Shown piece after piece: positions 10,126-50,864 of a stretch of 64,000 nucleotides of DNA. The position numbers were made by a program, and so were the translations under genes. Numbering within the stretch: the stretch's first letter is position 1; each line of letters begins with the position of its first letter. The stretch comes from Candidatus Neptunichlamydia sp. (GTDB lineage Bacteria; Chlamydiota; Chlamydiia; Chlamydiales; Simkaniaceae), in contig OZ247587.1 in the NCBI GenBank assembly GCA_965233865.1, positions 448,001 through 512,000 of the forward strand, written 5' to 3'. Below the pieces are notes generated by a model. The model made no database searches. It was not told where the DNA came from and saw only the letters and a list, made by a program, of their open reading frames with translations.

Positions 10126-10205
10126 TTATAAAACATTTGAATTTCCAATATTCACGCTCACTTCATAGAGATATTTTGGTAATATCTTGCTTAAAACTTA
10201 GGTTA

Positions 10206-26801: not shown

Positions 26802-29800
26802 TTATGGTTGAGGTTGCCAAGGAAATGGAATGTTTGGAGGGGGGACGTTAGATTGATCATCAGCAAGGTTTCCGACTGCGCCAAGGACTTGTCCCCAAAT
26901 CCCTGTTTTTGGAGCGATTTGCTTGCGAGCGACAAGGAATGCAATCTTCCCTGTCGCAGCAACTGTGTCGATTTTGACATTGCCAAAAAGGCCTTCAACG
27001 GGAACCTTCAAAACATAGTTATCATCGATTCCTTGGATTCCTAATGCAGAACGGAGTACTGGGGCAGTTAGGCCAAGGGTCATATCAACATAACGCTTTG
27101 GGAAGTTAATGCCTCCCCATAAGCAGATTTGATATGCATTGTTATAGAGAATTTCAGTTCTGTCAACATGCATCTTTCCTCGATTCATATTGAACCCTGC
27201 AGGGGCAAACCAAAGGGAAACGTTTCCTCTGTTTTCGGAGCTAAAAAGCCCCCCTACTTCTGAGGTGCTGCCAGTATTCTTGCAAAGGATCTGGCCGAGA
27301 TCGAGTTGTCCATATTTAAAGCTCATATTTTTTATATGGAGATCTTTTAGAGGAATATTAAATCCCTTATCGTGAATATAGAGAGTGATAGGTTTTTCCA
27401 TCGCCACGACGACCAGCTTGGCACTTTTTTCGAGAACATCATTAAGCTGAGGGGTGATAGTAAAAACTGCTTTGAGTGGGTCTTGAAGATAAAGAATTTC
27501 ATTAGAAATGATTCCAGAAAAATTGGCTCGGCATGCTGATGCGTTAATATCCATCGTGATTTTCCCCTGGCTCTTTTCAACTTCTGCATCAAAAGTAGCA
27601 TTAAACAGATTACCAAGAAATGATGATGGGGGAAAGTCGGAGACCTTGTCAAATTTCGAAAGAGCATCGACAAAAACACTGGGAAGATTTTTGACGCTTG
27701 CATGGATCGATGTAGAGACATCTTTAAAATCAAGGGTTCCAGCGCTTGAGAGAAAATCTGTTATTGTTCCAGAGCCTTGTATCACACCGCTTTTTCTGTC
27801 TCCATCTGGAGATATATCCCCATTAAAATTAAAGGTGAGAGGGTTGTTTCCTGCCCGTTTTTTTGCAATATTGAAATCAAATTTTTCAAGCACAGTAGTA
27901 ACGCCAGTTCTGCTCTGTTTTAATTTGAGATCATTAACCCTCACCTTCGCATCAAAGTGGCTGCCAAAGAGATTGAAATCAAATTTAGGGAACCCTTCGC
28001 TCTGATCCTTTAAAGGAACAGAAAAGGAGGAGATTTGCATTTTAAGCACTCCCAAATCATCATCATCGACAGTAAAAAGTAGATTATTGGACATAATCTG
28101 TTGGTTGGGGTTGCGCCATTTGCGGAAGGCATCGTATGATTTTTCGCTTAAATCCCAGCGAATTTTCAATGGTTTTCGGGGGCTGCGGAGCTCCAAAGTT
28201 TCTCCCACATAAAATGCACCGTCAAGAGTCAGGCCACGGCTTTCTATTTGAATATCGAGGTTTTGCCTTCCCAGAGCTTTTTCCGTTGCATATTTTAACT
28301 CAAGAGTGGGACCGATTAAATCGGGGAGTTGTCCTTGCGTTTTGAAAAAAACATCAGCAATTTGTGAGGAGAAATCGCTTAAAGATGCTCTCATGGTACT
28401 AAGAGAGGATATAAGCTCAGATGTTTTTCCATTTCCAACTAATGTGAGCTCTAGCTTTCCAGCGCTGCTACCATTTTCAAGAGCACTTCCTTCAAAATGG
28501 ACGGTATGTGCATTTTTCTTTCCGTCGAGATCAAAATCCACTTGAACATTTTCAAATGTGAATGGATAGCGATTTAATGGGTTCACCATATCGAGGTTGG
28601 CAATCTTTCCAACTCCTTTTACAGATAGAGATGCCCCCCCCCCTTCCTTTAGAGGGATTTGACTTGGTTTAATTTCTAGCTGAAGAGGGGTTGTTTTAGT
28701 CAATAGAGGGTATTCTCTCTCTTCAGAAAGGATAGGGTTTATTTGTGAGGGCTCCAAAAGAAAATCTATTTGTACTCCTTTTGTCAAAATGAGGGTGCTT
28801 TTCTCTATTGCAGCTGTAATATCTCCTTTAAATTTCCGCCCATCTAGGGAAAGATTAAAGGGTGAAATTTCAAATTCATCACTAACTTTTGTTTTTCCTT
28901 TAGCTTTAACACCTACATTTTTTCCTAAAATCGAATATCCCCATGTTTGATCCTGATAATCGAGAGTTGTGGCTCCATTAAATTGAAAGGCGGATAGAGA
29001 GGTTCCCTTAAGGTTTACACGAAGGGAGGGGAGATTAACATTTCCTAGCGCAAAAAGATCACTTATTTCTATTTGTCCAGAACTGAGATTAAGATCGAAA
29101 TCAGAATCCTTAAAAACAAGCCCTTCTTCGTTTATAGGAATCGAAAGAGCGTTTAACTCTCCTTGTACCTTAAAGAAGCCCGTAAGATTTTTATAGAGAT
29201 TTGGTGTGACTACGTAGGTAAAAGTTGAAGGCTTTGTAAGCTGCGCAACCTCGCTGAGAATAAGGGAAGTGTTTTGCAGGTTTAGAAGAGGAGTTTTTCC
29301 GTTTAAGGTAATGCTGCTTTGGTTTTTAGCAATTTTTCCGGAATAGGTATCTCCAAGATAGACGGCAAGGGAACTACTTAAAAAACTGTCAATAAGGGAC
29401 AGGGGGAGGTCATTAATACTTAAATCAAGAGCTGGATAGGAAGCTTTTTTTAAGATATTTTGGATCGAAAGAGTTCCATTTACAGAAGGTTGGGCCTCTT
29501 TTTGGTATCGCATGGTGCTTTTCAAACTCATTTGAATGAGCTTATTTAATGCTGCTGTTGAAAATTTTGCATTGAGTTCATCAATATTAATAATTCTTTG
29601 AATTTTATTTAAGAGAAGCTGTCCACCAGAAAAATAGAGATTTCCAACAACTGCTGCCTCGCTAAAATCAAAACTGTTTCGAGTCAATGGGAGAGAACCT
29701 TTCTCAAGCCGAATCTCGGTTTGTGCATTATTTTGGAGGGAAATGTTCTCATTGAAGTAGTTAAATAGAAGAGGTTTTAAAGTCAAATCTACTCTTCCTG

Positions 29801-30656
29801 GAGAATCTAGAACAAGTTTTCCATTTTTATAGGTCGGATTAAAATCTACAAAAAGGCGAGGTGAGCGCACGCTTACCTCAACCTTTAACTCTTCTGCAAC
29901 AGGAGTTGATTTTAGGTTCGCATTTACAGTATCACCAAGTGTTGCAAGAAGAAGACCTTGATATTTAGGTGCAAAGATAGAAATAACTTGGTCTAGACCC
30001 TCGACAGGAACATTATCAAGCGTTGCCGTTCCCTCCAACGAGGCATTCCAACTCCCTTGGGCAAAAAAAGTTCCTACGAGCTCATTTTTTCTTATTTTCC
30101 CCTCGAATAAAAATGAGTTAGCCTCTCTAATATCAAGATCTACTTTTATCCCATAAATGGATATGGAGGTGTTTCCTCCATTTTCAATTGAGATTTTTCC
30201 ATTTGAGAGCGTGAAGTGGCCGCTAAAGTCAGACCAGAACGTTCCTTTGGTTTTTTCAATGGCCTTCCCAGACTTTTTGAGGGTAGCGACCTTTTTTTGA
30301 GATACTTTGGGGTAGGCTGAAATATTAAGGTTTTCAATGTGCGTATTACCGATACTTCCATTCCGAAAAAGGAGATTCGAAAAAGAACAGCCGCTGGTGA
30401 GAGAATCAAACGTAACTTCGAATCCTTTCCCCTCATTAAACTGAAGTTTGTCAATCTGTTGTTCACTCGTCCAACTAAGCGAAAGGTCTTGAATTTTGAG
30501 CTGACCGCCCGTACTTCTCTCAACTATTTTGATCAGAAAGTTTGTCCCAGCTTCGGAGGATAAGATTGTAGGAAGGAATGTTACAATTAGAGCAACTCCT
30601 CCTAAAATAGCTACGACTGCCCACACCCACTTTTTTATTTTAAGGTTAAAGGTCAT
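26802..30656 (-). CDS. Large inner-membrane-anchored beta-rich protein, AsmA/TamB-like (inferred)
   Basis: 1284 aa with one N-terminal TM followed by LPTILSS...LSLSW, repetitive beta strands and C-terminal VPVEG...VKID. Confidence 0.65.
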   Translation of the reverse strand: MTFNLKIKKWVWAVVAILGGVALIVTFLPTILSSEAGTNFLIKIVERSTGGQLKIQDLSLSWTSEQQIDKLQFNEGKGFEVTFDSLTSGCSFSNLLFRNGSIGNTHIENLNISAYPKVSQKKVATLKKSGKAIEKTKGTFWSDFSGHFTLSNGKISIENGGNTSISIYGIKVDLDIREANSFLFEGKIRKNELVGTFFAQGSWNASLEGTATLDNVPVEGLDQVISIFAPKYQGLLLATLGDTVNANLKSTPVAEELKVEVSVRSPRLFVDFNPTYKNGKLVLDSPGRVDLTLKPLLFNYFNENISLQNNAQTEIRLEKGSLPLTRNSFDFSEAAVVGNLYFSGGQLLLNKIQRIINIDELNAKFSTAALNKLIQMSLKSTMRYQKEAQPSVNGTLSIQNILKKASYPALDLSINDLPLSLIDSFLSSSLAVYLGDTYSGKIAKNQSSITLNGKTPLLNLQNTSLILSEVAQLTKPSTFTYVVTPNLYKNLTGFFKVQGELNALSIPINEEGLVFKDSDFDLNLSSGQIEISDLFALGNVNLPSLRVNLKGTSLSAFQFNGATTLDYQDQTWGYSILGKNVGVKAKGKTKVSDEFEISPFNLSLDGRKFKGDITAAIEKSTLILTKGVQIDFLLEPSQINPILSEEREYPLLTKTTPLQLEIKPSQIPLKEGGGASLSVKGVGKIANLDMVNPLNRYPFTFENVQVDFDLDGKKNAHTVHFEGSALENGSSAGKLELTLVGNGKTSELISSLSTMRASLSDFSSQIADVFFKTQGQLPDLIGPTLELKYATEKALGRQNLDIQIESRGLTLDGAFYVGETLELRSPRKPLKIRWDLSEKSYDAFRKWRNPNQQIMSNNLLFTVDDDDLGVLKMQISSFSVPLKDQSEGFPKFDFNLFGSHFDAKVRVNDLKLKQSRTGVTTVLEKFDFNIAKKRAGNNPLTFNFNGDISPDGDRKSGVIQGSGTITDFLSSAGTLDFKDVSTSIHASVKNLPSVFVDALSKFDKVSDFPPSSFLGNLFNATFDAEVEKSQGKITMDINASACRANFSGIISNEILYLQDPLKAVFTITPQLNDVLEKSAKLVVVAMEKPITLYIHDKGFNIPLKDLHIKNMSFKYGQLDLGQILCKNTGSTSEVGGLFSSENRGNVSLWFAPAGFNMNRGKMHVDRTEILYNNAYQICLWGGINFPKRYVDMTLGLTAPVLRSALGIQGIDDNYVLKVPVEGLFGNVKIDTVAATGKIAFLVARKQIAPKTGIWGQVLGAVGNLADDQSNVPPPNIPFPWQPQP

Positions 30657-32305: not shown

Positions 32306-33091
32306 TTAGCGCATATAGCGTGAACCACTTCTTAGGCTACAGAGCGCTAAAATATAACAGAGCAGAAAAAAAACAAAAGTGACAGCTCCGGCAATGCCAA
32401 GGTCTATATCAGTACTACCGAGCATTCCATAGCGGATTCCATTGATAATAAAAAAAAGAGGGTTAAAGTGGGATACAGATTGCCAAAAGAAGTGCATACC
32501 TTCGAGACTAAAAAAAACACCACCTAGATAAATTAAAGGAAGTAGGATCAACATGCTTACAGCTCCGACATGTTCAAAACTCTTAGACCACATGCCAATG
32601 GCAATTCCAAGATTTCCAAAGGCGAGCCCTCCAAAGATTAAAAAATAGATGAAAACAAGAGGGTCAGCAATGAGAAGAAAGTGACCCATTTGGAAATAGT
32701 AGAAGGCTTGCCCCACCCCGTAGGTGATAAGCCCGACAAAGAGCCCTCGCGTTAGAGATGAGAGTGTTTTAGCAGCGCATAATTGCTGGAGCGAAAATGG
32801 AGCCACCCGAAGGTCTTGAAGCTCATTCACATACTTTTGTCCCATGATTGCACTTGTTGAATTGTCGAAAGTGTTTTTAATAAGAGACATGGCGATTAGC
32901 CCAGGGATCAAAAAAGCAAGATAGGGAACGTTATTTTCTAAATGGATGGAATGACTCAAACTGACACCAAAGATCAGAAGGTAGAGGATTGAGTTGACAA
33001 TAGGAGCTCCCACTGTTTGAAGTGGAACCTTCAAAAAACGAGCAACCTCTCGCTTATAGAGACCCTGAATTTGCAACCATCGGTTCATCAC
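32306..33091 (-). CDS. ABC-2 type transporter permease (YadH-like)
   Basis: REVARFLKV, YLAFLIPGL, LGGVFFS and NPLFFIINGIRYG motifs. Confidence 0.9.
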   Translation of the reverse strand: MMNRWLQIQGLYKREVARFLKVPLQTVGAPIVNSILYLLIFGVSLSHSIHLENNVPYLAFLIPGLIAMSLIKNTFDNSTSAIMGQKYVNELQDLRVAPFSLQQLCAAKTLSSLTRGLFVGLITYGVGQAFYYFQMGHFLLIADPLVFIYFLIFGGLAFGNLGIAIGMWSKSFEHVGAVSMLILLPLIYLGGVFFSLEGMHFFWQSVSHFNPLFFIINGIRYGMLGSTDIDLGIAGAVTFVFFLLCYILALCSLRSGSRYMR

Positions 33092-33984
33092 TTGTCTCCT
33101 GTCAGGATGGTTTGCATCACATCTTCAAGAGTTCCCATTTTGATATTGATATCTTGAATGCAATTCATAGGAATCGAAGCTTCTTGAAATAATTGAGAGA
33201 GAGGCATTTCATTAGGGACTTGAAAGTCAAGAAGATGATCACTTTGAGCTGTAAGAAGTGGATGGGGTATCTCTTCAAGTGGAGAAGATAGGGTTATGCT
33301 CACCTTTTTTGAAGAGTATTCTTGCAGCATTTTCTCTGTTGTGTCTACCTTCCTCAAGCGACCGTGGTCCAGTATGCCAATTTTATCGCAAAGAAACTCA
33401 GCTTCCTCCAAGTAGTGAGTTGTTAAGAGAATGGAGAGGCTATCTTTTTTTAGTTCTTGAATAAACTTCCAAAGAGAGGCGCGCAATTCAACATCAACTC
33501 CTGCTGTTGGTTCATCAAGAAGAAGAAGTTTGGGTTTATGAAGAAGCGCTTTAATGATCAAGAGGCGCCGTTTCATTCCACCGCTCAACTGATTCACCAG
33601 TTTTTTTCGGTGATGATAGAGGTGAAGTTTGTCAAGGAGGTACTTTAGGCGTTCCTTGTCGAAAGGAATACCAAAGTAAGTTGCATGATATTTTAAGATC
33701 TCTTCCACAGTAAAAAAACCGTGATGGATCAGTTCTTGCGGAACAAAACCCATATGAGATTTCGCAATGCGGGGGTTCTTTTGGACGTCAACTCCAAAGA
33801 TTTTAATCGAGCCCTCTGAAAAAGATTGCAGAGTCACAATATTTGAGATAATCGTTGTTTTCCCCGCCCCATTTGCTCCTAAGAGACCGAAGACTTCCCC
33901 TCTTTGAATCTCGAAAGAAACCCTTTCTGCAGCCACAAGCCTTCCATATTTTTTGGTGAGATTCTTAACGACAAGAGGAGTCAT
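33088..33984 (-). CDS. ABC transporter ATP-binding protein (YadG-like)
   Basis: GANGAGKTT, LSGGMKRR, LDEPTAGVD and TTHYLEEAE motifs. Confidence 0.92.
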   Translation of the reverse strand: MTPLVVKNLTKKYGRLVAAERVSFEIQRGEVFGLLGANGAGKTTIISNIVTLQSFSEGSIKIFGVDVQKNPRIAKSHMGFVPQELIHHGFFTVEEILKYHATYFGIPFDKERLKYLLDKLHLYHHRKKLVNQLSGGMKRRLLIIKALLHKPKLLLLDEPTAGVDVELRASLWKFIQELKKDSLSILLTTHYLEEAEFLCDKIGILDHGRLRKVDTTEKMLQEYSSKKVSITLSSPLEEIPHPLLTAQSDHLLDFQVPNEMPLSQLFQEASIPMNCIQDINIKMGTLEDVMQTILTGDK

Positions 33985-34442
33985 TTTACCTCTTTCATAT
34001 CAAGTAGAAGGTGGCCCCAATCGGCTAGGCAGATGCCGCCTAAACCGTAAAAAATGAATGGCTTATAATGTTTGTAAAACTTTAAAATGGAGCCTTTTGT
34101 CGGGAGTACATTGTAAACAATAAGGAATACAAGGGCTCCCCATGCTAAAAGCCATACGATGCGGGTAAAAGACCCAAGAATCAGATTATGGGAGAGGCCT
34201 CGATGGATAAAAACTTTTGAATAGGAGCGAAAGGGGATGCTTAAAATTCCCCGAATAGACATTAAGCGGATTTGATTCGCAAGGTCCATATCAGGGTTCA
34301 TAAAAAGAGTGCTGTAGGCAAATGTTCCGGAAAATATGAACATGAGATTCCTTGCAGGGTGAAGAAAAAAATACATGGCCCCTATAAGTATAGGAAGAGC
34401 TATAAAGAAATTGAATTGAGCATGTTGCTTATACATTGCCAT
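33981..34442 (-). CDS. DUF2227-family putative metal-binding membrane protein
   Basis: H...N, PDMD, HRGLSH and HLLLD motifs. Confidence 0.75.
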   Translation of the reverse strand: MAMYKQHAQFNFFIALPILIGAMYFFLHPARNLMFIFSGTFAYSTLFMNPDMDLANQIRLMSIRGILSIPFRSYSKVFIHRGLSHNLILGSFTRIVWLLAWGALVFLIVYNVLPTKGSILKFYKHYKPFIFYGLGGICLADWGHLLLDMKEVK

Positions 34443-34493: not shown

Positions 34494-34529
34494 TTTAGTG
34501 CAAGGCAGACGTTTAGTGCAAGGCAGACG
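34494..34529. repeat. Perfect 18-bp tandem duplication
   Basis: TTTAGTGCAAGGCAGACG occurs twice in succession. Confidence 0.95.
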
Positions 34530-34553
34530 TATATAAAATATATAGTGCTTAAA

Positions 34554-35423
34554 TTAACGGCAATGACTTTCTATAGACAGATCAAGATAGGGAGCCAGTT
34601 CAGGGTGGTTTTTTTCGAGATAATTCTTGAGATCAAGCGTTACAACTGTAAGCTCCTCTCTGCTTGGAGATTCAGATACTGTTGGGTAAAGCTCTCCAAT
34701 ATCAATCTGTATAATCTTTCCATCTAAAACCCCTAAATTCCCTTCGCAGTTGATATTATCATTTCCGATTCCCCGCTCATTTCTTAAGGTTAGATAATCT
34801 AAAATTGCATCGATTGTTTGTTTTCCCTTTTTAGGGGATTTTTTTAGCACATCAAAGACATGGTGGGCGTTCTTTTGAATCAGAAATTCCATGTCATCTA
34901 ACTTAAGCACAAGCTTTTTTCCTTGCGAAGAAAGCAAAGTAATGGACTTTTTGAGATAGTTTGTTTTTGTGAGGTGAAGGTAGAGAACTCCACTATGATC
35001 TTGAAGTCTTTCGTGAGCAAGCTGATAGCTTTGGTAGAGATATAGTCGTCGGTGGTGGTGACGGTTTAACATTTCATTTCGGATCATTCGAATACGTTCA
35101 GATAAGGGAAGGTGGTTCAAAAAATACCGCGTTCTCATATGCTTTTGCTTAAAAAATTTCACGACAATCTCACCATCTTCGGAGACAAATGCATAGCACT
35201 CCTTTCCACTTTCAAGAGGAGAAAAGGTTTGTGTGGAAACCCGATCAAGGAGATCTGCTTGCTCAAGGCTTGGCAGCCCAAAATCCCAACGGGAATCATA
35301 TCCATAAAGGGAATGAATTTTCTTATAAGAGAACCCTTTAATTCTCATGATGCAAGAGATATAAGTCAAGACACATAAAAAAACTCCAAGGGCAATAGCG
35401 GAAGATAAAATGTATTTTTTCAT
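34554..35423 (-). CDS. Membrane-anchored kinase-fold protein, degenerate catalytic loop (paralog 1 of 4)
   Basis: N-terminal TM; ESGKECYAF, VVKFFK, GIGNDNINCEGNLG and QIDIG motifs. Confidence 0.7.
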   Translation of the reverse strand: MKKYILSSAIALGVFLCVLTYISCIMRIKGFSYKKIHSLYGYDSRWDFGLPSLEQADLLDRVSTQTFSPLESGKECYAFVSEDGEIVVKFFKQKHMRTRYFLNHLPLSERIRMIRNEMLNRHHHRRLYLYQSYQLAHERLQDHSGVLYLHLTKTNYLKKSITLLSSQGKKLVLKLDDMEFLIQKNAHHVFDVLKKSPKKGKQTIDAILDYLTLRNERGIGNDNINCEGNLGVLDGKIIQIDIGELYPTVSESPSREELTVVTLDLKNYLEKNHPELAPYLDLSIESHCR

Positions 35424-36283
35424 TTGTACTGCTCAATTTGATCGACAATTTTACTTTCAACTTTCGAAAGATGTTTTGGGGCGTGCATTTTTAAAAAATC
35501 GTGAATTTGGTAAGAGAGAGTTTTGAGCTCTTCATAAGTAGGTCTGGGGGCCTGGTTTGTGCGAAACTCTCCTATATCGATTTCAATCGCTCGGTTATTC
35601 ACAAATCCAAAGTTTTTGAAAAACTGGAGATCCTTGTCATAAATTCCTTTTTGGCTCCGTTTTGCAACAACCTCAAAGAGAGAAAGAATCGCTCTTTCTG
35701 CTTCCTTGGATTGCCCTTTTTTATACAAAGCCTTGAGGTGATGAAAGACCAGCGTTGCTTTTTTTTGAATCAGAAATTCCATTTCATCAAGAGAGACTTC
35801 AAACGTTTTTCCATTTTGATCAATTAAGGTAAGGGAGAGGTTGAGCGTATCGGTCTTATTAAGGTGGAGGCAGAGCATCCCGGTTTCTTCTGGAAGCTTT
35901 TCAAAAGCAAGCTTGTAACTACTAAAGGAATCCTGCCTTTCCTTTGTTCTTTGATCAATCTTCCGTACTGAGTGAAATATTTTTTTGACAAAAATAGAGA
36001 GCGAGTCCGTCCCTGTTTTGATTCTCATGTGTTTTTGCTTAAAAAACTTGATAACGGCTTCATCATCATCAGATACAAAGGCATAGGTATGATTCCCACT
36101 TCCAAGGTAATGGCATTGCGATCCCATTAGAGAAGCGAGTTCCATGCGAGACATTGTGTTCTCTACTTCCCATTCAGGAGCAGAAGCATGATGAGACGTA
36201 ATTTTTTTAAGAGTAAATCCTTTAGGGCGATCGCACCCGACAGAAAATACAATAATCGAAAAGACAAGTAACCATTTCTTCAT
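35420..36283 (-). CDS. Kinase-fold lipoprotein (paralog 2 of 4)
   Basis: MKKWLLVFSIIVFSVGC lipobox; YLGSGNHTYAF, VIKFFK, GIYDKDLQFFKNFG and EIDIG motifs. Confidence 0.7.
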   Translation of the reverse strand: MKKWLLVFSIIVFSVGCDRPKGFTLKKITSHHASAPEWEVENTMSRMELASLMGSQCHYLGSGNHTYAFVSDDDEAVIKFFKQKHMRIKTGTDSLSIFVKKIFHSVRKIDQRTKERQDSFSSYKLAFEKLPEETGMLCLHLNKTDTLNLSLTLIDQNGKTFEVSLDEMEFLIQKKATLVFHHLKALYKKGQSKEAERAILSLFEVVAKRSQKGIYDKDLQFFKNFGFVNNRAIEIDIGEFRTNQAPRPTYEELKTLSYQIHDFLKMHAPKHLSKVESKIVDQIEQYK

Positions 36284-36445
36284 GTAGATCAGTTTACACA
36301 AATAGGGCCAAAGCGTCTAGGACTTCTGCTGCTCATGCTTTTGATTTAGGAAGAATAAGGCCAAGCAAGTGAGGATGCAAACCTTAGGGACTTGGATTTC
36401 ACTTTTGATCTCCTTTGGTAGATGTTTTTTTACAGTTTCAAATCC

Positions 36446-38062
36446 TCAATCTGAAGAGATAAAGGCTTTGTGGAACTGGATATCTCCCATTGGGGAGATG
36501 GAGAGACCTTGAAGGTGGGAATGCTTTACGTAGACAAGATGGAAGTGGTAAAGAGGAATAATGGGCATTTCATCCATGAGTAGGGACTCAGCCTCTTCAA
36601 GAAGAGCGACTCTTCCTTCTTTGCTTGCGTAGTAGGAGGACGAAAGGAGTTCAGAATAGTAGGGGTTTTCCCATCCACTATAGTTTCGAAAAGCCTCTTT
36701 TCCATTAAAGCGTTCAAGAAAGGACATGGGGTCGTGATACTGTCCCACCCAAGACATTTGGGCAACTGAAAAGTCATGGTTCTCTAGTTTTGTAAGGTGC
36801 GATTTAAATTCTAGAGCTTGAATACTAATATCAATGCCGAGGACAGATTTCCAATAGTTTTGAAGGGTAATTGCTAAATTTCTGTGAAGCTCAGATATGA
36901 AGTAATAATAGGTGATCTTTGGAAACTCTTGCTTCGTAATTCCAAGCTCCTCAAGCCCCTTATGAAAATGCTGCTGAGCAAGAGCCTTTTGATGATCTAA
37001 AAAGAAAGTGGTTACGGTTTCTTTAAGAACATGAGGAACAGGCCCCGAGGCAACATCGTCATACATTTGAAAAAGGTTTTCTGTGATTTCCCCCCGATCA
37101 ATCGCTAAGGAAAAAGCCTTTCTAACATGAACATTATTGAAGGGGAAGCGGTTCACGTTGAAAGTGCAAAGAGTGGTTCCCGCAATCGGCCTCTGTCTAA
37201 TCAAGTCACTTTTTTTAAGGCTCGAAACCGCATCAAGAGGGAGCGTAGAGGTTAGACCACCAACGATATCAAGCTTTCCTTTTTCAAAAAGGTTAAGCGT
37301 TGTTCCTTCATTGCTTACCATCAAGATCGTTATTTTTTCTAGGTGGACCTTATCAGCATTCCAGTAGTAGGGATTCTTAACTGCAACGATTTTATCGTCA
37401 TTTTTCCAGGACGTAATTTGAAACGGTCCACAGGAAAGGACTTCGCCGGTTTGGTTAGGATGGGGGACTTCATCACCATGAAATGGAACTGGAAAATAGG
37501 TACAAAAAGAGGTCAGCTCCAAGAAATATGGAGTAGGACGTTCAAGGCGCACAAGCAGAGTTGTTTTATCAAGGGCTTCTATCCCCACCTCATCAAGAGA
37601 GCATTCTCCATTTTTAGCGCGCTCCGCATTTTTTATGGGGAAGAGGAGATGCGCAGATTTTGAAGTGAAGTCAGTGTTAAGCGCAGCCTTCCATGCAGCT
37701 TCAAAATGATAGGCGGTGAGGGGAGATCCATCTGACCACATCGCTGGCCTTAAGGAAAAGAGGTAGTTGCGTTTATCTCTTGAGAGATTGACATGCTCTG
37801 CTAAAGCGTACGATACCGTCCCATCTGCCTCTAGGTGCGTGAGTCCCTCATAGAGCATGAAATTAAGTGTTGTGGTGACAGGGTCTGTGCATTTTCTGGG
37901 GTCAGCAGTAAAGGGGCTATAGCTAAAATTAATCACTATTTCCTGGCGCAGTCTGCCATGATCCTTCTTCTGGCACGAGGCTGCTGTAAACAAAAATAAA
38001 ATAGGGATAAAAAAGTGCCTTATCATTAAGTAGATAGTAGGCTTTGTCTCTAAGGTCTGCAC
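36446..38062 (-). CDS. oppA: Peptide ABC transporter substrate-binding lipoprotein
   Basis: Lipobox AASC; LYEGL, WSDGSPLTA, IKNA, GPF, KNPYYW and RKAFSLAIDR motifs. Confidence 0.92.
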   Translation of the reverse strand: MQTLETKPTIYLMIRHFFIPILFLFTAASCQKKDHGRLRQEIVINFSYSPFTADPRKCTDPVTTTLNFMLYEGLTHLEADGTVSYALAEHVNLSRDKRNYLFSLRPAMWSDGSPLTAYHFEAAWKAALNTDFTSKSAHLLFPIKNAERAKNGECSLDEVGIEALDKTTLLVRLERPTPYFLELTSFCTYFPVPFHGDEVPHPNQTGEVLSCGPFQITSWKNDDKIVAVKNPYYWNADKVHLEKITILMVSNEGTTLNLFEKGKLDIVGGLTSTLPLDAVSSLKKSDLIRQRPIAGTTLCTFNVNRFPFNNVHVRKAFSLAIDRGEITENLFQMYDDVASGPVPHVLKETVTTFFLDHQKALAQQHFHKGLEELGITKQEFPKITYYYFISELHRNLAITLQNYWKSVLGIDISIQALEFKSHLTKLENHDFSVAQMSWVGQYHDPMSFLERFNGKEAFRNYSGWENPYYSELLSSSYYASKEGRVALLEEAESLLMDEMPIIPLYHFHLVYVKHSHLQGLSISPMGDIQFHKAFISSD

Positions 38063-38076
38063 TATATTTGTATTCT

Positions 38077-39009
38077 TTATAGGCCGTTAAATATCATCGG
38101 TTTAATTGTCAAGGGTATTTTACGGCGTATATTGAAAAAATTCAAATCTGCTTCTTCGCTGTCAATGTTCATGAAAAATCTTCCTAAAATTGGAGCCAGT
38201 GAGTAACCGGCAGAGGCTAGGTATCCCACTTTTTTCTTCACCATGAAGGAAGAAAATGTTGGGGTTAGCGCAGCTCCAAGAATTGCCGCAATAGCCAGTG
38301 AGCTGAGTTCTTTATTAACCTCGTTCAAGCCGTATTTTTTTTTATTAAGTTCTTCTTTTGCTAACGCGAATGTTGGAGCTAAAATGACCGCAGTGGGAAT
38401 ACTTCCCTTAATTATAGAGAATGTATTTCTAAAGGCGAAGATGCTCTTCATGCCGAGGCAGACAACAGCGTTTGCTATTCCAGAGGCTACTCCAGAGGCT
38501 ATTCCAGCATAGATCCCCATTTTTACACTCTCATTCCACTTAGGGTTTGTAATTTTTTCTTGAGAGGTGACAGCAACTGCAAAGAGTGATGTAATAGCTG
38601 AGATGCTTGCATAGGAGAAAGCTTCTGATAGTGACATCTGATGCGAGTTAAACTTACTGTTCAAATACCGAACAGTAAGAAGCGTTAGCACAAACACACT
38701 GGTTGCCACGACAATTGATCTTTTCTCTTTCTTCTGAGGCTCTGCTGGAATCACGCTATACTTATAAGTCAGGCCAACCGCTGTTCCAGCAGGTGTGGAT
38801 CCTACGAGATTTTTGGCAATCCACTTTATGGCGTTCCAAGAGTGAGATAGTCCCCAACTTGATACAGAGTAAAAGCTCTTTCCAACATGCCAAGAGGCTT
38901 TTGCAGCAAGGACTGCGGTGGCTGTACCAATAATGGTTGCTTGACCGCAGTAAAGTAAATTGTTTCCATAAACTTGTAAATTTCTTTGAGTCATTCTAAT
39001 ACTTCCCAA
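38077..39009 (-). CDS. Hypothetical multi-hydrophobic-segment protein
   Basis: 310-aa ORF with several Ala/Gly/Ser-rich hydrophobic hairpins and an AT-rich upstream region. Confidence 0.7.
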   Translation of the reverse strand: MGSIRMTQRNLQVYGNNLLYCGQATIIGTATAVLAAKASWHVGKSFYSVSSWGLSHSWNAIKWIAKNLVGSTPAGTAVGLTYKYSVIPAEPQKKEKRSIVVATSVFVLTLLTVRYLNSKFNSHQMSLSEAFSYASISAITSLFAVAVTSQEKITNPKWNESVKMGIYAGIASGVASGIANAVVCLGMKSIFAFRNTFSIIKGSIPTAVILAPTFALAKEELNKKKYGLNEVNKELSSLAIAAILGAALTPTFSSFMVKKKVGYLASAGYSLAPILGRFFMNIDSEEADLNFFNIRRKIPLTIKPMIFNGL

Positions 39010-39085
39010 ATTTTGAATTTATAATAAAATTAGGAACATTATACCAAATGTTAATAAATTATAAAAGGTAAAATATTAATCTATC

Positions 39086-39985
39086 TTAAGCAGGTACCTT
39101 ATAGCTCTGAAGTTCTTCTTGGGCTATAGGAACAAGCTCAAGGTAGTTTTCTTGGAGCCAGGGAAGGAGTTTGTGATAAATTTTTTTGAGTTCGTGATTG
39201 TAGAAATATTCAAGATTTTTCTTTGGGTCTCGATGAAACCCCCCAATATCGAGTTCTACAGCTTTTCCATTGATAAAGCCAAAGTTTCGAATCAGGTGAG
39301 GATCTTTATCGCTAAATCCTTTTTTGGCGCGCATCTCTGTAAAAGCAAGGAGTTCTTTTAAAGCCTTCTGTGCTTCTTGGGTTTTCCCTTCTTTTTTTAG
39401 GGAGAGGAGATATTCTCCTGTTGGAATCGCCTTTTTTTGAACCACAAACTCGACATTTTTGAGTTGGATATGGTGCTTAAGGCCAATCCGATCTTTTAAA
39501 ATAATTGTATGATTAAAAAGGGTGTTTTTATTAAGGTGGACAAAGATGACCCCTGTCTCATTTTTAAAAATTGTATAAGCAATTTTGCAGCTTCCAAAGG
39601 TTGATGCGACAGTCCTTTTCTTCTTGAGCTTCCACCGATCCCGTTTTTCAGCAATTTTTTTTGGGAGGGGGAGCTTTTCATAGAGGGGATTCATCCGCCA
39701 TCTTTTGTGCTTAAAAAATTTGAGAACATAGCTGTTGTCTTCGCTGATAAAGACATAGCTTTGCGAGCCACTTTCTAAGTAGGAGAAGGGTTGGTCAAGG
39801 GCTGTTTCTAATTCCAAAAGATCTTCAGGTTCAAAGGTGATATCCCACTTCGGATTGTAAGGGAGCGAGGAAGTAATATTGGGATAACTAAATCCGTCTG
39901 TTAAGGCATGAGAAAAGCGCTCTACTCCGACAATTGCAGCAACGATCAAAAGTCCTATCAGGCATTTATTGATAAATGATTTCAT
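39086..39985 (-). CDS. Membrane-anchored kinase-fold protein (paralog 3 of 4)
   Basis: N-terminal TM; YLESGSQSYVF, VLKFFK, GFSDKDPHLIRNFG and ELDIG motifs. Confidence 0.7.
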   Translation of the reverse strand: MKSFINKCLIGLLIVAAIVGVERFSHALTDGFSYPNITSSLPYNPKWDITFEPEDLLELETALDQPFSYLESGSQSYVFISEDNSYVLKFFKHKRWRMNPLYEKLPLPKKIAEKRDRWKLKKKRTVASTFGSCKIAYTIFKNETGVIFVHLNKNTLFNHTIILKDRIGLKHHIQLKNVEFVVQKKAIPTGEYLLSLKKEGKTQEAQKALKELLAFTEMRAKKGFSDKDPHLIRNFGFINGKAVELDIGGFHRDPKKNLEYFYNHELKKIYHKLLPWLQENYLELVPIAQEELQSYKVPA

Positions 39986-40823
39986 TTAATTCCTCAACAA
40001 ATGGGTCTAACAAAACAGGGTGATTTTCTGCAATCCAAGATTCAAAAGCGCGGGTAATTCGGATCATTTCTGGTCCATAAACTTCTCGTTTTTTTTCTTG
40101 TTCGTATGGGGAAAGCCTTCCGAAATCTATTTGAAAAGGAGTGGTATTGATATACCCAAAATTGGTGCTAAAGTCTGGATCCTTATCGAAGATTCCTTTT
40201 TGACATCGGTCCTTTGCAAGGCGCAGGAGAGAGCAGATTGCTGTTTCTGCAGCCTTTTGATTTCCTTCAGCCATCCAGCGATCTATTGCGGTATAAGCAA
40301 GAGTTCCCTTTTTCTGAAGGAGGAACTCCACTTGGTCAAGATTCAGGAAATGCTTTTTTCCAATTCTATCAATAATCGTGATGGTTTGCTTAAGGTTTGA
40401 CGTTTTTGCTAAATGGAGAGTAATGAGCCCAGTCTCTTCTTTCATCTCGTCGTATGCTAAACAGAGACTATCAAAGGTCTTTTCCAAAATAGATCGTTTC
40501 TTTTCTCTTTTTTTGCCTAAAATTCCCACGTTGGGTAGGAAATTTATCAGAGGAGGCGTTCTCATATGTTGGAATTTGAAAAGTTTAAGAACTGTGGTTC
40601 CATCTTCAGAAAAGAAGACGTAGGATTGACTTCCTGAACCGAAATAAGTGAAGGTTTGTTTAAGGAGATGCCCTGGAATATCTCCTTCGCGATGCCACTT
40701 TTTATTGTCTTCAGTTGGAGCATACACATTGACTAGTGCAAAGCCATCTGTTGCTTTGTGGCAGAAACGTTCTGTTGCAAAAAACAAAAAAACACTCAAA
40801 AAAAATATGAATAATCGCTTCAT
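39966..40823 (-). CDS. Membrane-anchored kinase-fold protein (paralog 4 of 4)
   Basis: N-terminal hydrophobic segment; YFGSGSQSYVF, VLKLFK, GIFDKDPDFSTNFG and QIDFG motifs. Confidence 0.72.
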   Translation of the reverse strand: MKRLFIFFLSVFLFFATERFCHKATDGFALVNVYAPTEDNKKWHREGDIPGHLLKQTFTYFGSGSQSYVFFSEDGTTVLKLFKFQHMRTPPLINFLPNVGILGKKREKKRSILEKTFDSLCLAYDEMKEETGLITLHLAKTSNLKQTITIIDRIGKKHFLNLDQVEFLLQKKGTLAYTAIDRWMAEGNQKAAETAICSLLRLAKDRCQKGIFDKDPDFSTNFGYINTTPFQIDFGRLSPYEQEKKREVYGPEMIRITRAFESWIAENHPVLLDPFVEELNEIIYQ

Positions 40824-40871
40824 TACCGTATATGAAAAGTTATAAGCTTGAGATATAAGGTATAGTATTAG

Positions 40872-42399: not shown

Positions 42400-43224
42400 G
42401 TGATTATGAAAAGGCTTTTAGGATTTTTTGTTTTTTTTGCAGCAGCACTTTATGGCATTAATGAAGTAAGGGTTGTTCCTACTGTTTCAACTCCAGAACT
42501 CAATACTGTAGCTACGAAAATCGTATTTCCCCGTCCTTATGAGAATAAAAGGAAAACCCCTGTTAATGTGCAGCTTAGAGTGGAAGGGTTTCCTTTAGGA
42601 GTGATCACTCAGAATGATCTTTTTAAAGAGATTTATGACGATCCTGAAGGGCAAGCGATTCATGTCATTATTGATAATGAGCCTTATCTTGTCTATAACC
42701 AGTCCTTTGAAGATTCTTTCGATGGAAATCGGGAATTTCATGATAAAATTGTGAGTTTTCACATTCCATTTACGCTTAAGCCTGGGATGCATGTTTTGCG
42801 GGTATTCCCTGCTCGTTCTTATGGGGAGAGTCTGAAAGGAAAAGGTCTTTTTTCGGCTGAGATTTTCTATTTTCAAGATCGCAAGAAAAGTGATGACCTT
42901 AATATAGATCTCCAAAACCCCTACCTTACTTATAATGAGCCGCAAGGAAGATACCCTTCTGGCAAGGGAGATCCTATTCTTCTCGATTTCCTCCTCTCTA
43001 ACTGTGAGTTAAGCCAGGATGGATACAAAGTGCGACTTACAGTTGATAAAGAGGTTATTTCAACACTCACAAAATATACTCCTTATTTAATTTATGGCTT
43101 AAGCCCAGGAAAACATATCGTTAAGCTCGAACTTCTTGATAAAGATAACAAGATCGTTCCCGGTTTTTTTAATGTGACGCAGCGGGAAGTGGAGATTGAT
43201 AATAATCTTTCTGACGCCTCATAA
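42400..43224 (+). CDS. Hypothetical secreted protein with two repeated Ig-like modules
   Basis: Signal peptide; repeated H-V-I-I-D-N / V-R-L-T-V-D and L-x-P-G-x-H motifs. Confidence 0.75.
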   Translation: MIMKRLLGFFVFFAAALYGINEVRVVPTVSTPELNTVATKIVFPRPYENKRKTPVNVQLRVEGFPLGVITQNDLFKEIYDDPEGQAIHVIIDNEPYLVYNQSFEDSFDGNREFHDKIVSFHIPFTLKPGMHVLRVFPARSYGESLKGKGLFSAEIFYFQDRKKSDDLNIDLQNPYLTYNEPQGRYPSGKGDPILLDFLLSNCELSQDGYKVRLTVDKEVISTLTKYTPYLIYGLSPGKHIVKLELLDKDNKIVPGFFNVTQREVEIDNNLSDAS

Positions 43225-43244: not shown

Positions 43245-45404
43245 GTGGCAAAGAAGAAGAAAGATCAAGAAATGTCCATCATGGACGCGGTCGACAATCT
43301 CTCAGGAATGGCAGAGCTCGATATAACCGCACCAAAAGAGAGTGAAGCCCTCGGTGTTAAGAAAAATCTCCACAAACTTAAAGAGTTAGAAAAAACAGAG
43401 AAGGAAGAAACCCTCTCGACCATCAAAGGGACTTTCAAAACAGTCCACAAATACCTTGAACACGTTTATTACAAAGACAAAGAGCAGCTGAAAGACCGCG
43501 ACATGCAACGGGGAATTAAAGCGATCATGGTTTTGGCTGATGAAGCTGCTGATAAGCTAGATAAGTGCACCTCTCTTTTTAAGCATACCTATGAAGAGGG
43601 CAAGATCTCTGAGATCAAGGAGTACAGAGACCTCCGCAATTTCTACAGTAAAAAGATCCTAAAACGTTTTGAAGAAGTTCTAGCGACAGAAGCTGCCTGG
43701 CAGGAAGAGTGGGCATCCGAAGATGAGAAGATTAATATCGAGCGCCAGGGTCTCAAAGATTTAGAGATGGTTAAAAGGGATAAGAAGTACGAACTCTTCT
43801 ATATCCGCAAGGATGATGGGAAGCCGTTCTTTAACCGGAATCTTTTGCGGCACATTAAGCTTGTGAGTGACTTCGATGAGGTGATCATGGAATTTGAAGG
43901 GGAAGACCCCCTTCTTCGCATCAATATTCTTCTTGATCATGAAGCTCAAGTTGTTGCGGAAGAAATTCTAGATATCGCAAAAAATGAGCTTGGCAATTTT
44001 TATGCTGATGCTTTTCACCACAAAGAAATTCAGATTGTTGGAGATATGATCAAAATGACCATATCTCTCATGCTTGCTTGTAACCCTCAAAATCTTAATG
44101 AAAACACCATGGGGAAGGTTTGCACTCGTTATCTGAAGGACTTCCACAAATTTTTAAGAGAGATTCTTGTTTCGCCTGATTACCTGCGCCTGATTAACCA
44201 TGCTGTTGAAGAGACAGATCAACTTTCCCGTGCACTTGTTAATCTTGTTCATGCCTTTTCCTTTGCCTTCTTTTGCCATAGTGGAAAGAAACAAGAGATG
44301 CTCGATTTTATGAATGACCTGCTTAAACGCTCCAATGATGGAGAACTTCCTATCAGAAAAGATAAGATTGATACTAACGTCTTTTTGAGTGAAGTTTATG
44401 ACCGTCATGACAGTATCACCGGGATGCTTAAAAAATACCCAAGTGGTCCTCTTTTTAAAACACTTGACATCTTCCAAGAAAGAAATGAAAGGGAAGGATT
44501 CGATCCAATCGATCAAGGAAACCCTCCTTACTACCTTTATACTTTTTCGAGCAGCAACTTTGATTCAAAGTGTCTTAAAATGCCTTGCCCAACTCTCCAT
44601 GCCCATATTAATAAAGCAGAAATTATCGATGAGTTTAAAGGATTTCTACGCTACTTTGAAACAAAGAAGGGGCTTGAAAGACACCTTCACATCAACCTTC
44701 AAGACCGCACTTCATGGGAAGAGCATGCTAGGTGCCAGGCCTTAGAAAAACTTCAAAATCAAGCCGAATTCTCAGAGCAACTGATTCTCGTCACCTTTTC
44801 TAAGAAGAGTGACTTCTACTTTCAGGCCGAAGATTATCTCAATGTCGATACTGCTAAAGATTTTCTAAAGTTATTAGAAGAGCAGGTGAAAAGTGGGGAA
44901 GAGTGCGGCTTCTTTTTCTCTAAACACCTACCCAAGAAAGAGCTTCACGATTTTGTAAAAAAAATTCTTCCAATCCTTCACACGTATTTCTTTAATAAAA
45001 TGGTGAAACTCAAGAGAAAAGAACGGCTGGATTTCATTGAAATTTTCTATCAATTCTTCACCCTGAAAATCCTTGAGCTCTCAAGACCCGATACCTTCAC
45101 CTTTTCATGTAAGGATGGAGTGGATGTGGGTTCTACAGCGAGTGCGGCGTTCTTCACTCTCGTGAAGCTGCTTGGGAAAGAGGATAAGTGGTCTCAAGAA
45201 GAGCAAGACCAACTCTATTGGATCCTCTGTGGTCCAGCACTTACCGTTCGTGAGCGCCTTGTAGATTATCAGAGATTTAGCCGGATGGCGAGCAGCCTTA
45301 GCATCACTGCGCAGATCCTTGCTAAAGACCACGATAAAATTATTAAGACACTTCAGCCTCTTTATAGCACAAAGTTATTCCAGAATCTCAAAAATGAATA
45401 CTAG
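43245..45404 (+). CDS. Chlamydial hypothetical protein (719 aa) with a CX5R-like loop lacking Arg
   Basis: GGAGG RBS; HLHINLQDRTSWEEHAR, DFYFQ and FSCKDGVDVG motifs. Confidence 0.75.
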   Translation: MAKKKKDQEMSIMDAVDNLSGMAELDITAPKESEALGVKKNLHKLKELEKTEKEETLSTIKGTFKTVHKYLEHVYYKDKEQLKDRDMQRGIKAIMVLADEAADKLDKCTSLFKHTYEEGKISEIKEYRDLRNFYSKKILKRFEEVLATEAAWQEEWASEDEKINIERQGLKDLEMVKRDKKYELFYIRKDDGKPFFNRNLLRHIKLVSDFDEVIMEFEGEDPLLRINILLDHEAQVVAEEILDIAKNELGNFYADAFHHKEIQIVGDMIKMTISLMLACNPQNLNENTMGKVCTRYLKDFHKFLREILVSPDYLRLINHAVEETDQLSRALVNLVHAFSFAFFCHSGKKQEMLDFMNDLLKRSNDGELPIRKDKIDTNVFLSEVYDRHDSITGMLKKYPSGPLFKTLDIFQERNEREGFDPIDQGNPPYYLYTFSSSNFDSKCLKMPCPTLHAHINKAEIIDEFKGFLRYFETKKGLERHLHINLQDRTSWEEHARCQALEKLQNQAEFSEQLILVTFSKKSDFYFQAEDYLNVDTAKDFLKLLEEQVKSGEECGFFFSKHLPKKELHDFVKKILPILHTYFFNKMVKLKRKERLDFIEIFYQFFTLKILELSRPDTFTFSCKDGVDVGSTASAAFFTLVKLLGKEDKWSQEEQDQLYWILCGPALTVRERLVDYQRFSRMASSLSITAQILAKDHDKIIKTLQPLYSTKLFQNLKNEY

Positions 45405-47556: not shown

Positions 47557-48224
<668 letters not shown>

Positions 48225-48226
48225 CA

Positions 48227-50864
48227 ATGCCAATCGATTTTTTAACAGTTGAGCAAAAAGCGGGATATGGACGCTTTTCTTGCAGGCCCAATGAAACACA
48301 ATTGGCTCGTTATTTTTTGCTCGATGAAAATGATAGGGATTTCATTTCGAGATGCCGTTGAGATTCGAGAAAGGTCTGCTAATCGTCTATGGTGTAGGCT
48401 GTCTTCTCTTCCGAGCACAGGACAGAAGGCCCAGCTTGAAACATTATTGCAGTTGAAAGAACGCCAGAAAATTTCTTATCTCGATCATTATCGCAAAGGG
48501 CCTGTGACTGTAAGCGGTCCTTCTTTTAATGGAGCCATAGAACGGTTTAAAAGTTTAAAATCTTTTGGAATCCAAGAGATCAATTTTTCTTATGTTCCTC
48601 CAGTAAGGTTAAAGGTTCTTGGGCGTTATGCCAGCATGGCATCAGCATACAAGATCTCTAGGATGTCTGATGAAAAACGGATTGCAACGCTTCTCGCTTT
48701 TACCAAAGCTTTTGAGATCATTGCTTTGGATGAGGCTCTTGATGTTTTAGATTTGCTGGTTACGGAGATAGCAGGGGAGGCAAAAAAGATTGGACAAAAG
48801 AAGCGTTTACGTACTCTGAAAGATCTTGATAGATCAGCACTTTCTCTAGCAGAAGCGTGTCACTGGGTATTAGATGATACTGTTCCAGATGAAAATCTGA
48901 GAAAAATGATATTTGCTTCTGTTCCTCGAGAAAAAATGGCGGATTCGGTAAAGACTGTGAATGACTTAGCTCGTCCCCCTGATGATGACTTTCATGATGA
49001 GCTTGTTGAACAATACGGACGTGTTCGAAGATTTTTGCCTCACTTACTGAATCACGTTGAATTTAAAGCTGCACCTGGAGGAAAGGCTGTTTTAGATGTG
49101 TTTGATTACCTAAAAAATATAGGAATCTTCCGTAAGCATTTTTTAGAAGATCCTCCTCTTGATATAGTCTCTCCTGCTTGGGAGCGACTCGTCATAGATC
49201 AAGATGGAAAAGTGAATAAAAAAGGGTATGTTCTCTGTTTTTTAGATCGGCTTCAAGATGCTCTTCGCAGAAGAGATATTTATGTCGAAGGTAGTGATCG
49301 ATGAGGAGATACCAGGGCAAAACTTCTTCAAGGATCTGAGTGGCAAGCAAACCGCATTCAGGTTTACAGATCTCTAGGACATCCCCTTAACCCAAAAGAA
49401 GCTGTTAATGGATTAGCAAGCCAGCTGGATGGAGCTTACAAGAATATCATTGCAAATTTTCAAACTAATGAAAAAGTTCGTGTTGATTATTCTTCTAAGC
49501 GACCTTCTTTGACAATCACCCACTTGGATAAAATAGATGAGCCTCCCAGCCTTAAAAAGCTTAAAGAAGAAGTCCAAGCTTTGCTTCCAAAGGTTGATCT
49601 CACAGAGCTTTTATTAGAGGTTCATACTCATACGGGGTTTGCTGATGAATTTACCCATGTTAGTGAGTCCAATGCTAAAGCCGACGATATTGCGGTTAGC
49701 ATTTGCGCTGTTCTGATGTCAGAGGCTTGTAATATTGGAATAGAACCGCTAGTAAAACATCACGTTCCCGCTCTCACAAGACACCGATTAAGTTGGGTGA
49801 AACAGAATTATCTTCGTGCTGAAACTCTCGTTAAGTCGAATGCAAGACTTGTTGATTACCAATCCACTCTTTCTCTCCCTAAAAAATGGGGAGGAGGGGA
49901 GGTCGCTTCAGCAGATGGAATACGTTTTGTTACACCGATTCGAACGATCAATGCAGGACTTAACAGAAAATATTTCGGCTCAAAAAAGGGGATCACTTGG
50001 TACAACTTCATCTCGGATCAATACTCAGGATTCCATGGAATTGTTGTTCCCGGGACTTTGAGAGATTCAATCTTTGTTCTGGAAGGTTTGTTAGAGCAAC
50101 AAACAGGGCTAAACCCTACAGAAATTATGACAGATACTTCTGGAGTAAGCGATCTGATCTTTGGGCTTTTTTGGCTTTTAGGATACCAGTTTTCTCCAAG
50201 GCTTGCCGATGCAGGAGAGGCTGTTTTCTGGAGAATAGATAAAAACGCAGATTATGGACCTCTAGACGAGATAGCGCGTAGCTGTGTCAATACTCGCCGA
50301 ATTGAAGAGCATTGGGATGACATGATGAGGATCGGTGGATCACTAAAGATAGGGACAGTTCAAGCCTCAGAACTCATTCGTTCCCTATTGAAAAGTGATA
50401 AGCCTTCAAGTTTAACTCAGGCGATTATTGATCTTGGAAGGATCAACAAGACCCTTTATCTCCTCAACTATATCGATGATGAAGACTATCGCCGCCGAAT
50501 ACTGAATCAGTTAAACAGAGGAGAAGGAAGGCACAGCATGGCTCGAGTCATCTGCCATGGTCAGAGAGGTGAAATTCGCAAGCGTTACCGCGAGGGTCAA
50601 GAAGATCAACTGGGAGCTCTCGGCTTAGTGATCAATGCGGCTGTCCTATGGAACACAATTTATATGGAGGAATCTTTGAAGCATTTGCAAGACGAATTCT
50701 TTGAGATCAGAGAAGAAGATGAAGCAAGGCTATCCCCTCTTGTTCATGAGCATATTAACGTTTTAGGTCATTACTCTTTTACACTGTCGGATAGTGTACT
50801 CAAGGGAGGGCTAAGACCGCTAAATAAAATGGGTGAATATGTTGAGAAAAACTTTCGAATGTAA
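48227..50864 (+). pseudogene. tnpA: Tn3-family transposase, disrupted
   Basis: Starts MPIDFLTVEQKAGYGRF...QLARYF. A deletion plus frameshift near 48355 removes roughly 120 codons. A TGA at 49302-49304 replaces the W of SDRWGDPR. The C-terminus retains ASADG, IMTDT and LNRGEGRH. Confidence 0.93.

Follow-up and report, generated by a model that had tools for sequence, protein, structure and literature searches.

A divergent family of kinase-fold proteins with predicted export signals in Candidatus Neptunichlamydia and other Chlamydiota

Can a bacterium use kinases on the outer side of its cytoplasmic membrane? This question is raised by four related genes, here called K1 to K4, in a 64,000-nucleotide stretch of the genome of Candidatus Neptunichlamydia sp. 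(phylum Chlamydiota, Simkaniaceae; assembly GCA_965233865.1, contig OZ247587.1, positions 448,001 to 512,000 of the forward strand). We refer to this whole stretch as the window, and coordinates without a prefix are window positions. Bacterial examples of phosphorylation with ATP beyond the cytoplasmic membrane are almost unknown, since ATP is considered to be missing from the periplasm. The chlamydiae form a natural exception here, as they take host ATP across their envelope. An earlier note on this DNA, made from the letters alone, had read K1 to K4 as exported kinase-fold proteins. We find that they belong to a real, large, unnamed and very divergent branch of the protein-kinase-like (PKL) superfamily. 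We lean slightly towards the view that these proteins and a fifth genomic copy, K5, are periplasm-facing, membrane- or lipid-tethered PKL phosphotransferases that would use host ATP. Three other explanations are weighed below, and jointly they carry about as much weight as this one.

Paralogy, fold and catalytic-type residues

The four open reading frames (ORFs) all lie on the minus strand: K1 (289 amino acids (aa), 34554-35423), K2 (287 aa, 35420-36283), K3 (299 aa, 39086-39985) and K4 (285 aa, 39966-40823). Their proposed paralogy holds, since the proteins can be aligned over their full length with 29-34% identity and 38 invariant columns. The genome assembly consists of one contig of 1.83 Mb and is 96% complete; a family profile searched against it recovers K1 to K4 at E-values of 3e-82 to 7e-136 (K4 at 3.8e-97). 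The earlier count of four is thus right for the locus and too low for the genome, which has K5 elsewhere (G000:C1:769168-769896; a 296-aa ORF at L034:5031-5921). K5 is divergent, having lost D226 while keeping D228, N234 and D246 (all residues are numbered as in K3). It is preceded by the gene for a signal-peptide protein of 522 aa and followed by an ORF of 147 aa that, we assume, resembles an IS200/IS605-type transposase.

Family databases do not name these proteins. Searches of Pfam and NCBIfam with the four proteins returned chance-level matches only, and in Pfam-A none of 139 diverse family members gave a match above the cut-off. The nearest named clusters in the Atlas, YrbL-PhoP_reg (0.88) and Kinase-PolyVal (0.86), fall below its reliable level and were set aside; the other Atlas clusters were exclusively unnamed chlamydial ones.

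We rely on an AlphaFold model of K3, built with an alignment of 41 relatives (predicted local distance difference test score, pLDDT, 94; predicted template modelling score, pTM, 0.88). As modelled, K3 is a two-lobed protein-kinase-like fold that covers about residues 40-299. Foldseek against PDB yielded only PKL proteins among the matches listed (ranks 1-50, some omitted), in the order AceK (E 2.3e-5), WbdD (E 6.9e-5), COQ8A, Rv3197, PRPK, WaaP (E 6.8e-4), RIO and APH. When these alignments were repeated with VIA-align, AceK reached Z 11.9 (205 residues, root-mean-square deviation 3.9) and PRPK Z 11.5; Z was at least 8 for 838 of the 999 chains. A search independent of Foldseek, covering 48,161 chains, again placed AceK first (Z 11.7, 190 residues, root-mean-square deviation 3.5), and its 50 best rows were all PKL proteins. 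Structure prediction, which the earlier note had suggested as a check, therefore gives the bilobed kinase fold; Kdo/WaaP, RIO and APH types, which it had named for comparison, are among the Foldseek matches, with AceK the best.

Several of the residues most conserved in the 139 diverse members (mean column identity 29%) fall where this fold would need them. F32, G73, K89, Q183, N234 and D246 are invariant, and D226, D228, H150, S132, D165 and G248 are conserved in at least 90%. The model places G73 between the first two strands and K89 in the third; N234 immediately precedes strand 235-238, and D246 immediately follows strand 241-244. This predicted placement is that of the canonical Gly loop, beta3 Lys, catalytic-loop Asn and metal-binding Asp. 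We take D228 as the catalytic base because it is kept where D226 is missing, namely in the K5 group and in one subgroup of arrays. The model, the two independent fold searches and the invariant Lys, Asn and Asp together confirm the kinase fold.

AceK, the isocitrate dehydrogenase kinase/phosphatase (PF06315), is the best structural match in every search and also gives the only hint at the level of sequence. With hhalign, the family profile aligns to Escherichia coli AceK over 123 columns (E 1.2e-3, probability only 18.9%). The catalytic loop D-x(5-6)-N-F-G is matched, D228...N234-F-G being placed on AceK G-D-M-L-F-K-N-F-G with a one-residue gap, and the metal-binding D246 is placed on Y-D-Y-D; the AceK residues so aligned are presumably its catalytic ones. 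AceK and the K family also have in common a minimal C-lobe; the K3 model runs from D246 straight into two helices, with no activation segment. However, AceK is cytoplasmic and has a large N-terminal regulatory domain (PF20423) that was not found in the K proteins of about 290 aa, whereas members of the K family carry a signal or a lipid anchor and are extended at the N-terminus by G-F...W. Hanks-type Ser/Thr kinases (Pkinase, PF00069), of which the genome carries three genes, belong to the same superfamily and have the same Lys / Asp...Asn / Asp arrangement. They differ in that their kinase domain is in the cytoplasm and comes before the membrane span; in addition, the K3 model has no activation segment and the K proteins have no Pfam match.

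It is important to consider whether a protein with this fold transfers phosphate at all. The K proteins might have kept the fold without phosphotransfer to a substrate, as ATPases or switches like Bud32 and RIO, as enzymes of other nucleotide chemistry, or as pseudokinase scaffolds. Bud32/PRPK and RIO, which act mainly as ATPases, are the closest structures after AceK (Bud32 Z 9.9-10.2, Rio1 Z 9.7, PRPK as above), and they resemble the K proteins in size, in minimal architecture and in having no activation segment. Furthermore, a helix-C Glu was not found, and the K1 of the window has lost the D-x-D of its catalytic loop. Unlike the K family with its export signals, however, Bud32/PRPK and RIO are found in the cytoplasm or nucleus, where they act in the KEOPS complex or help ribosomes to mature, and they have no sequence match to the K family. 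The invariance of K89, N234 and D246 and the conservation of D228 in the 139 members argue for retained catalysis in most copies, and we regard a general loss of phosphotransfer as unlikely.

For K1 itself the situation is different. The shared motifs described earlier are present in K2, K3 and K4, but the K1 loop reads G-I-G-N-D-N-I-N-C-E-G-N-L-G and so does not have the D-K-D...N-F-G form. All three same-genus K1 orthologs have G-D-N-D-I-N or G-D-D-D-I-N where the K1 of the window has G-N-D-N-I-N, and D-x-D is also kept in more distant K1 orthologs. The change amounts to three first-codon-position changes or to a small slip in a GAT/AAT run. K89, N234 and D246 are retained, but because the Asp at the D228 position is lost, the K1 of the window is probably an inactive copy, as judged from its sequence.

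Export signals and the compartment of the kinase domain

On which side of the inner membrane would this domain lie? Each of K1 to K4 begins with Lys or Arg followed by a single hydrophobic segment, as the earlier note had observed. Among full-length members, 206 of 219 have an N-terminal hydrophobic 15-mer (Kyte-Doolittle mean of at least 1.6), the median length of the uncharged run being 17 residues. The N-terminal flank of about 6 residues carries on average 2.3 Lys/Arg and 0.1 Asp/Glu, and the 15-residue C-terminal flank carries 2.4 and 1.4, so that the net charge favours an orientation with the N-terminus in and the C-terminus out.

The strongest evidence for export, as predicted from sequence, is the lipobox of the K2 subfamily. 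K2 begins M-K-K-W-L-L-V-F-S-I-I-V-F-S-V-G-C-D, in which F-S-V-G-C precedes D-R-P-K-G-F, and is a predicted lipoprotein according to the lipobox pattern [LVI..]-x-[GAS]-C, which follows the PROSITE rule. The earlier note had seen this lipobox in one protein, and it is indeed present there, but it is not confined to that protein. Eight of nine K2-clade sequences have L-x-[GAS]-C followed by (D/E/Q/N/S)-R-P-(K/Q)-G-F, as does the ortholog in the same-genus genome G034, and 10 further representatives (at most 50% mutual identity) show the lipobox Cys, then polar or charged residues, then the G-F motif. The genome encodes the lipoprotein enzymes Lgt (E 5e-58) and LspA (E 2.6e-25).

Fused proteins point in the same direction. 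Three representatives in which the domain is fused in tandem (501, 564 and 519 aa) have a hydrophobic segment at the N-terminus only. One tandem fusion, P0078, has a classical signal, I-Y-A-H-A, with an A-H-A cleavage motif followed by V-S-S. In P0347, a metagenomic singleton and putative fusion, a K3-like domain is joined to an OppA domain that has no signal peptide of its own, which would put the kinase fold where periplasmic binding proteins reside. Export of the K1-K4 family, as the earlier note had proposed it, is thus supported by the predicted lipobox, by the tandem fusions and by P0347.

The opposite topology must nevertheless be considered. The N-terminal helix might be an anchor only, with the domain in the cytoplasm and envelope precursors phosphorylated at the inner leaflet, as by WaaP, KdkA and WbdD. 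These enzymes have the PKL fold and act on envelope glycolipids; Foldseek lists two of them, WbdD and WaaP. An ABC-2 exporter is the partner of WbdD, and one is also encoded downstream of the K genes, an arrangement that recurs in a related locus (L017). Near the single-copy basal subfamily, three loci have a gene for a SIS+CBS (KdsD-like) protein, and MurJ adjoins a kinase-fold gene in another (L019). A putative fusion to flavin amine oxidase and the equal Lys/Arg counts on the two flanks, both discussed below, fit a cytoplasmic domain as well. However, WaaP, KdkA and WbdD act on the cytoplasmic side and, unlike the K family, have no signal peptide or lipobox, and the Pfam family Kdo/WaaP is matched by none of the 139 members. 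The conserved K2-subfamily lipobox would be irreconcilable with a cytoplasmic domain, and the short N-terminal tail is basic, with hardly any acidic residues. The cleavable signal of P0078 and the putative fusion to a periplasmic binding-protein domain likewise speak for the outside. A cytoplasmic domain therefore seems improbable to us.

For a kinase fold outside the cytoplasm, a comparison can be made with animal secretory kinases. Fam20C, POMK and FAM69/DIPK resemble the predicted layout of the K proteins, with a single N-terminal anchor and a non-cytoplasmic kinase fold. They are proteins of the eukaryotic Golgi and endoplasmic reticulum with no sequence similarity to the K family, and any kinship may go no further than the superfamily. 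POMK reaches Z 9.9-10.3 against the K3 model, which is no higher than many ordinary kinases, and Fam20 is not among the matches listed.

Distribution, host ATP and the balance of evidence

Searched against 1.84 billion representatives, the family profile matched 2,482 proteins (clustered at 50% identity) at E<=1e-3, 1,545 of them at E<=1e-30. The named relatives, all annotated as 'hypothetical protein', come from Simkaniaceae, Simkania, Neptunochlamydia, Anoxychlamydiales and other chlamydial bins. Within the phylum, 219 of 300 sampled genomes have matches at E<=1e-5. The profile of copy number that the earlier note had called for is uneven: all 32 genomes of family f6 and all 47 of f7 have matches, family f9 has about 7-9 matches per genome, and the kinase-fold family was matched in none of the 29 genomes of family f4, which are 1.0-1.2 Mb in size. 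Judged by this size, f4 is presumably the Chlamydiaceae.

We also gathered 33 related loci by a search with closer orthologs; this set is therefore biased towards K3-like genes. By their titles, 27 loci are from chlamydiae, 3 from 'Verrucomicrobia(e)' bins and 3 bear the title 'uncultured bacterium'. Two of the 'Verrucomicrobia' loci (L020 and L023) share their gene order with a Rhabdochlamydiaceae locus (L022), and the third (L025) consists of a kinase-fold array alone; these loci, too, are probably chlamydial. The family appears to be limited to the phylum Chlamydiota. We found no description of it in the literature, searched at the level of listings and abstracts, which is weak evidence that it is undescribed.

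Tandem arrays and copy numbers such as those of f9 are typical of host-interaction families. This raises the possibility that the K proteins are Sec-dependent secreted factors that reach the inclusion lumen or the host cytosol and phosphorylate host targets there, as part of an effector arsenal. Some chlamydial Sec substrates do reach the host, the signal of P0078 is of the classical cleavable kind, and the host cytosol would supply the ATP. However, the segment after the hydrophobic core, E-R-F-C-H-x-x-T-D-G-F (E-R-F-C-H-K-A-T-D-G-F after the hydrophobic segment of K4), is conserved and mostly lacks a small-x-small cleavage site. In addition, the K2 type is predicted to be lipid-anchored, the genes are located among envelope and transport genes (OppA, ABC-2, MFS), and the sequences of K1 to K4 show no bilobed hydrophobic domain of a type III-like or Inc-like kind. 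We see only a small chance that the family acts on the host.

The reading to which we lean, that of tethered phosphotransferases facing the periplasm, would work as follows. Each protein would be exported by the Sec pathway and then tethered to the membrane with its domain in the periplasm, K2 by a lipid anchor and K1, K3, K4 and K5 by an uncleaved or cleaved N-terminal signal. Phosphate would be transferred from ATP in the periplasm, and the paralogs probably differ in substrate. As to the source of ATP, chlamydial TLC-type transporters import host ATP across the inner membrane, and four of these nucleotide transporters are encoded in full length in this genome. ATP from the host should be present in the periplasm, since it has to pass through this compartment on its way to such inner-membrane proteins.

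Several observations weigh against this reading. Concerning kinship with kinases, the AceK_kinase family of Pfam is matched by only 2 of the 139 members, weakly and below the cut-off (E 0.033); profiles of 4, 41 and 139 members matched no kinase among the PDB sequences; and the low hhalign probability against AceK falls to 0.2% against the genome's own Hanks kinase. Concerning catalysis, no conserved helix-C Glu was identified in helix 109-138, either in the model or in the 139-member alignment, and the near-invariant S132 sits, by spacing, at the place expected for it. With regard to export, Lys/Arg counts alone are equal on the two flanks (2.3 and 2.4), and an obvious signal-peptidase site is missing in most members. 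A loose lipobox is found in 22 of 219 members, where shuffled sequences give 10.8 ± 3.2 (maximum 21), and as this is only about twice the shuffled rate, the lipobox signal comes from the K2 subfamily. Co-variation of Cys residues, a sign of disulfides, is too weak to use (phi 0.26-0.30). One further singleton, P0348, is a putative fusion of an anchored K3-like domain with flavin amine oxidase, a domain that is more often cytoplasmic; no amine oxidase homolog was found in the genome or in the 33 loci. Finally, the family was not found in the 29 f4 genomes although these also import host ATP, so that the supply of ATP alone does not explain the distribution.

The gene cluster, its neighbours and what they may mean

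The K genes are part of a string of nine genes on the minus strand, which runs from K4 to an ABC-2 permease. K4 is the first gene of the upstream pair, and K3, the modelled copy, begins with an ATG 20 nt inside K4. Next come an ORF for a multi-pass membrane protein of 310 aa (38077-39009) and an OppA paralog (SBP_bac_5; 36446-38062) with the lipobox F-T-A-A-S-C. The second pair follows, and the ATG of K1 overlaps the TGA of K2 by 4 nt (ATGA). The K2 ORF can be extended to a TTG at 36301, but the ATG at 36283 is the start common to its orthologs. Downstream of K1 are a DUF2227 membrane protein (33981-34442), an ATP-binding cassette (ABC) ATPase (33088-33984) and the ABC-2 permease (32306-33091), which ends the string. 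The overlap within each pair that the earlier note had reported is therefore correct, and related loci show it too: at least 7 have the overlap of 20 nt, and 5 have that of 4 nt. The pairs do flank oppA, as had been noted, and the 310-aa ORF also lies between them. This ORF has no family match and is poorly conserved, with 44% identity in one relative only.

Upstream, the start of K4 is separated by only 48 bp (40824-40871) from the divergent start of a major facilitator superfamily (MFS) transporter gene. This implies that at least one promoter lies inside a coding region or that a start codon is miscalled. A scan for promoters and terminators remained at chance level (21 against 18.7 ± 4.1, and 7 against 9.5 ± 3.2). 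At the other end of the K genes, the 111-nt gap between K1 and DUF2227 contains two tandem copies of an 18-nt unit (34495-34530, minus strand), just past the K1 stop. A transposon remnant, consisting of a resolvase (47557-48105) and a Tn3-family DDE transposase (49509-50864), lies a few kb from the cluster.

The cluster OppA is one of nine OppA paralogs in the genome, the one that accompanies the kinase-fold genes, and it is the best match to the OppA part of P0347. Its orthogroup is found in the kinase-fold cluster in 14 of the 33 loci. The ortholog overlaps K3 by 17 nt in one of these (L018) and follows K3 after 11 nt in another (L017; ORFs 7974-8894 and 8906-10495), and both orthologs are lipoproteins. 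A complete oppBCDF, with two permeases and two oligo_HPY ATPases, is located on the minus strand at 21649-25448, 11 kb from the cluster OppA. The region that separates the opp permease genes from the cluster encodes, at 26802-30656 (minus strand), a protein of 1284 aa with a single membrane segment at its N-terminus; it matches no Pfam family, and its GspN match is only sub-threshold.

Other neighbours recur as well. Three loci (L007, L017 and L018) have DUF2227 and the ABC-2 exporter after K1 or after the cluster, and DUF2227 adjoins K1 in some relatives. On the plus strand of the window, a signal-peptide protein of 274 aa (42400-43224) and a 719-aa protein (43245-45404), both without a family match, are encoded side by side. 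The former adjoins kinase-fold genes in 17 of the 33 loci and the latter in 16, with identities down to 40-50%. The model of the 274-aa protein has low confidence (pLDDT 64) and shows two beta-sandwich domains. Searched as a single query, this protein was found in families f1, f7, f9, f20, f28 and f30 and was not found in f3, f6 and f12, which carry the kinase-fold family; it is thus a frequent rather than an obligate neighbour.

In the single-copy basal subfamily, a divergently encoded membrane protein of about 260 aa adjoins the kinase-fold gene in all four loci (L026:7068-7985, L028:4656-5426, L031:7078-7884 and L032:7099-7887), with 35-57% identity between loci. A PHO4-type phosphate transporter is encoded beside kinase-fold arrays in several distant loci (L023:3182-4177, L020:2777-3787, L022:5699-6691, L024:4190-5182 and L026:2344-3994), and in L026 a PhoU_div gene accompanies it, immediately behind a kinase-fold gene.

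If the K proteins are periplasmic phosphotransferases, the dedicated OppA paralog is a likely partner, which might bind a substrate or product or might itself be the target. We tentatively extend this to a periplasmic phosphorylation system, in which diversified, anchored minimal kinases, powered by host ATP on its way to the transporters, would modify imported solutes, peptides or envelope components and would pass them to the dedicated OppA-type protein, or act on that protein. This fuller proposal is possible, and we hold it with some doubt. If it is true, chlamydiae, in contrast to free-living Gram-negative bacteria, have an additional compartment in which chemistry can be driven by ATP. 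The family is spread through the phylum in multiple copies, yet it was not found in the family with genomes of about 1 Mb, and it accounts for several 'hypothetical proteins' in most environmental chlamydial genomes. Because cultivable relatives such as Simkania negevensis carry homologs, experiments are feasible, and the family would offer a testable handle on whether chlamydiae use host ATP before it enters the cell.

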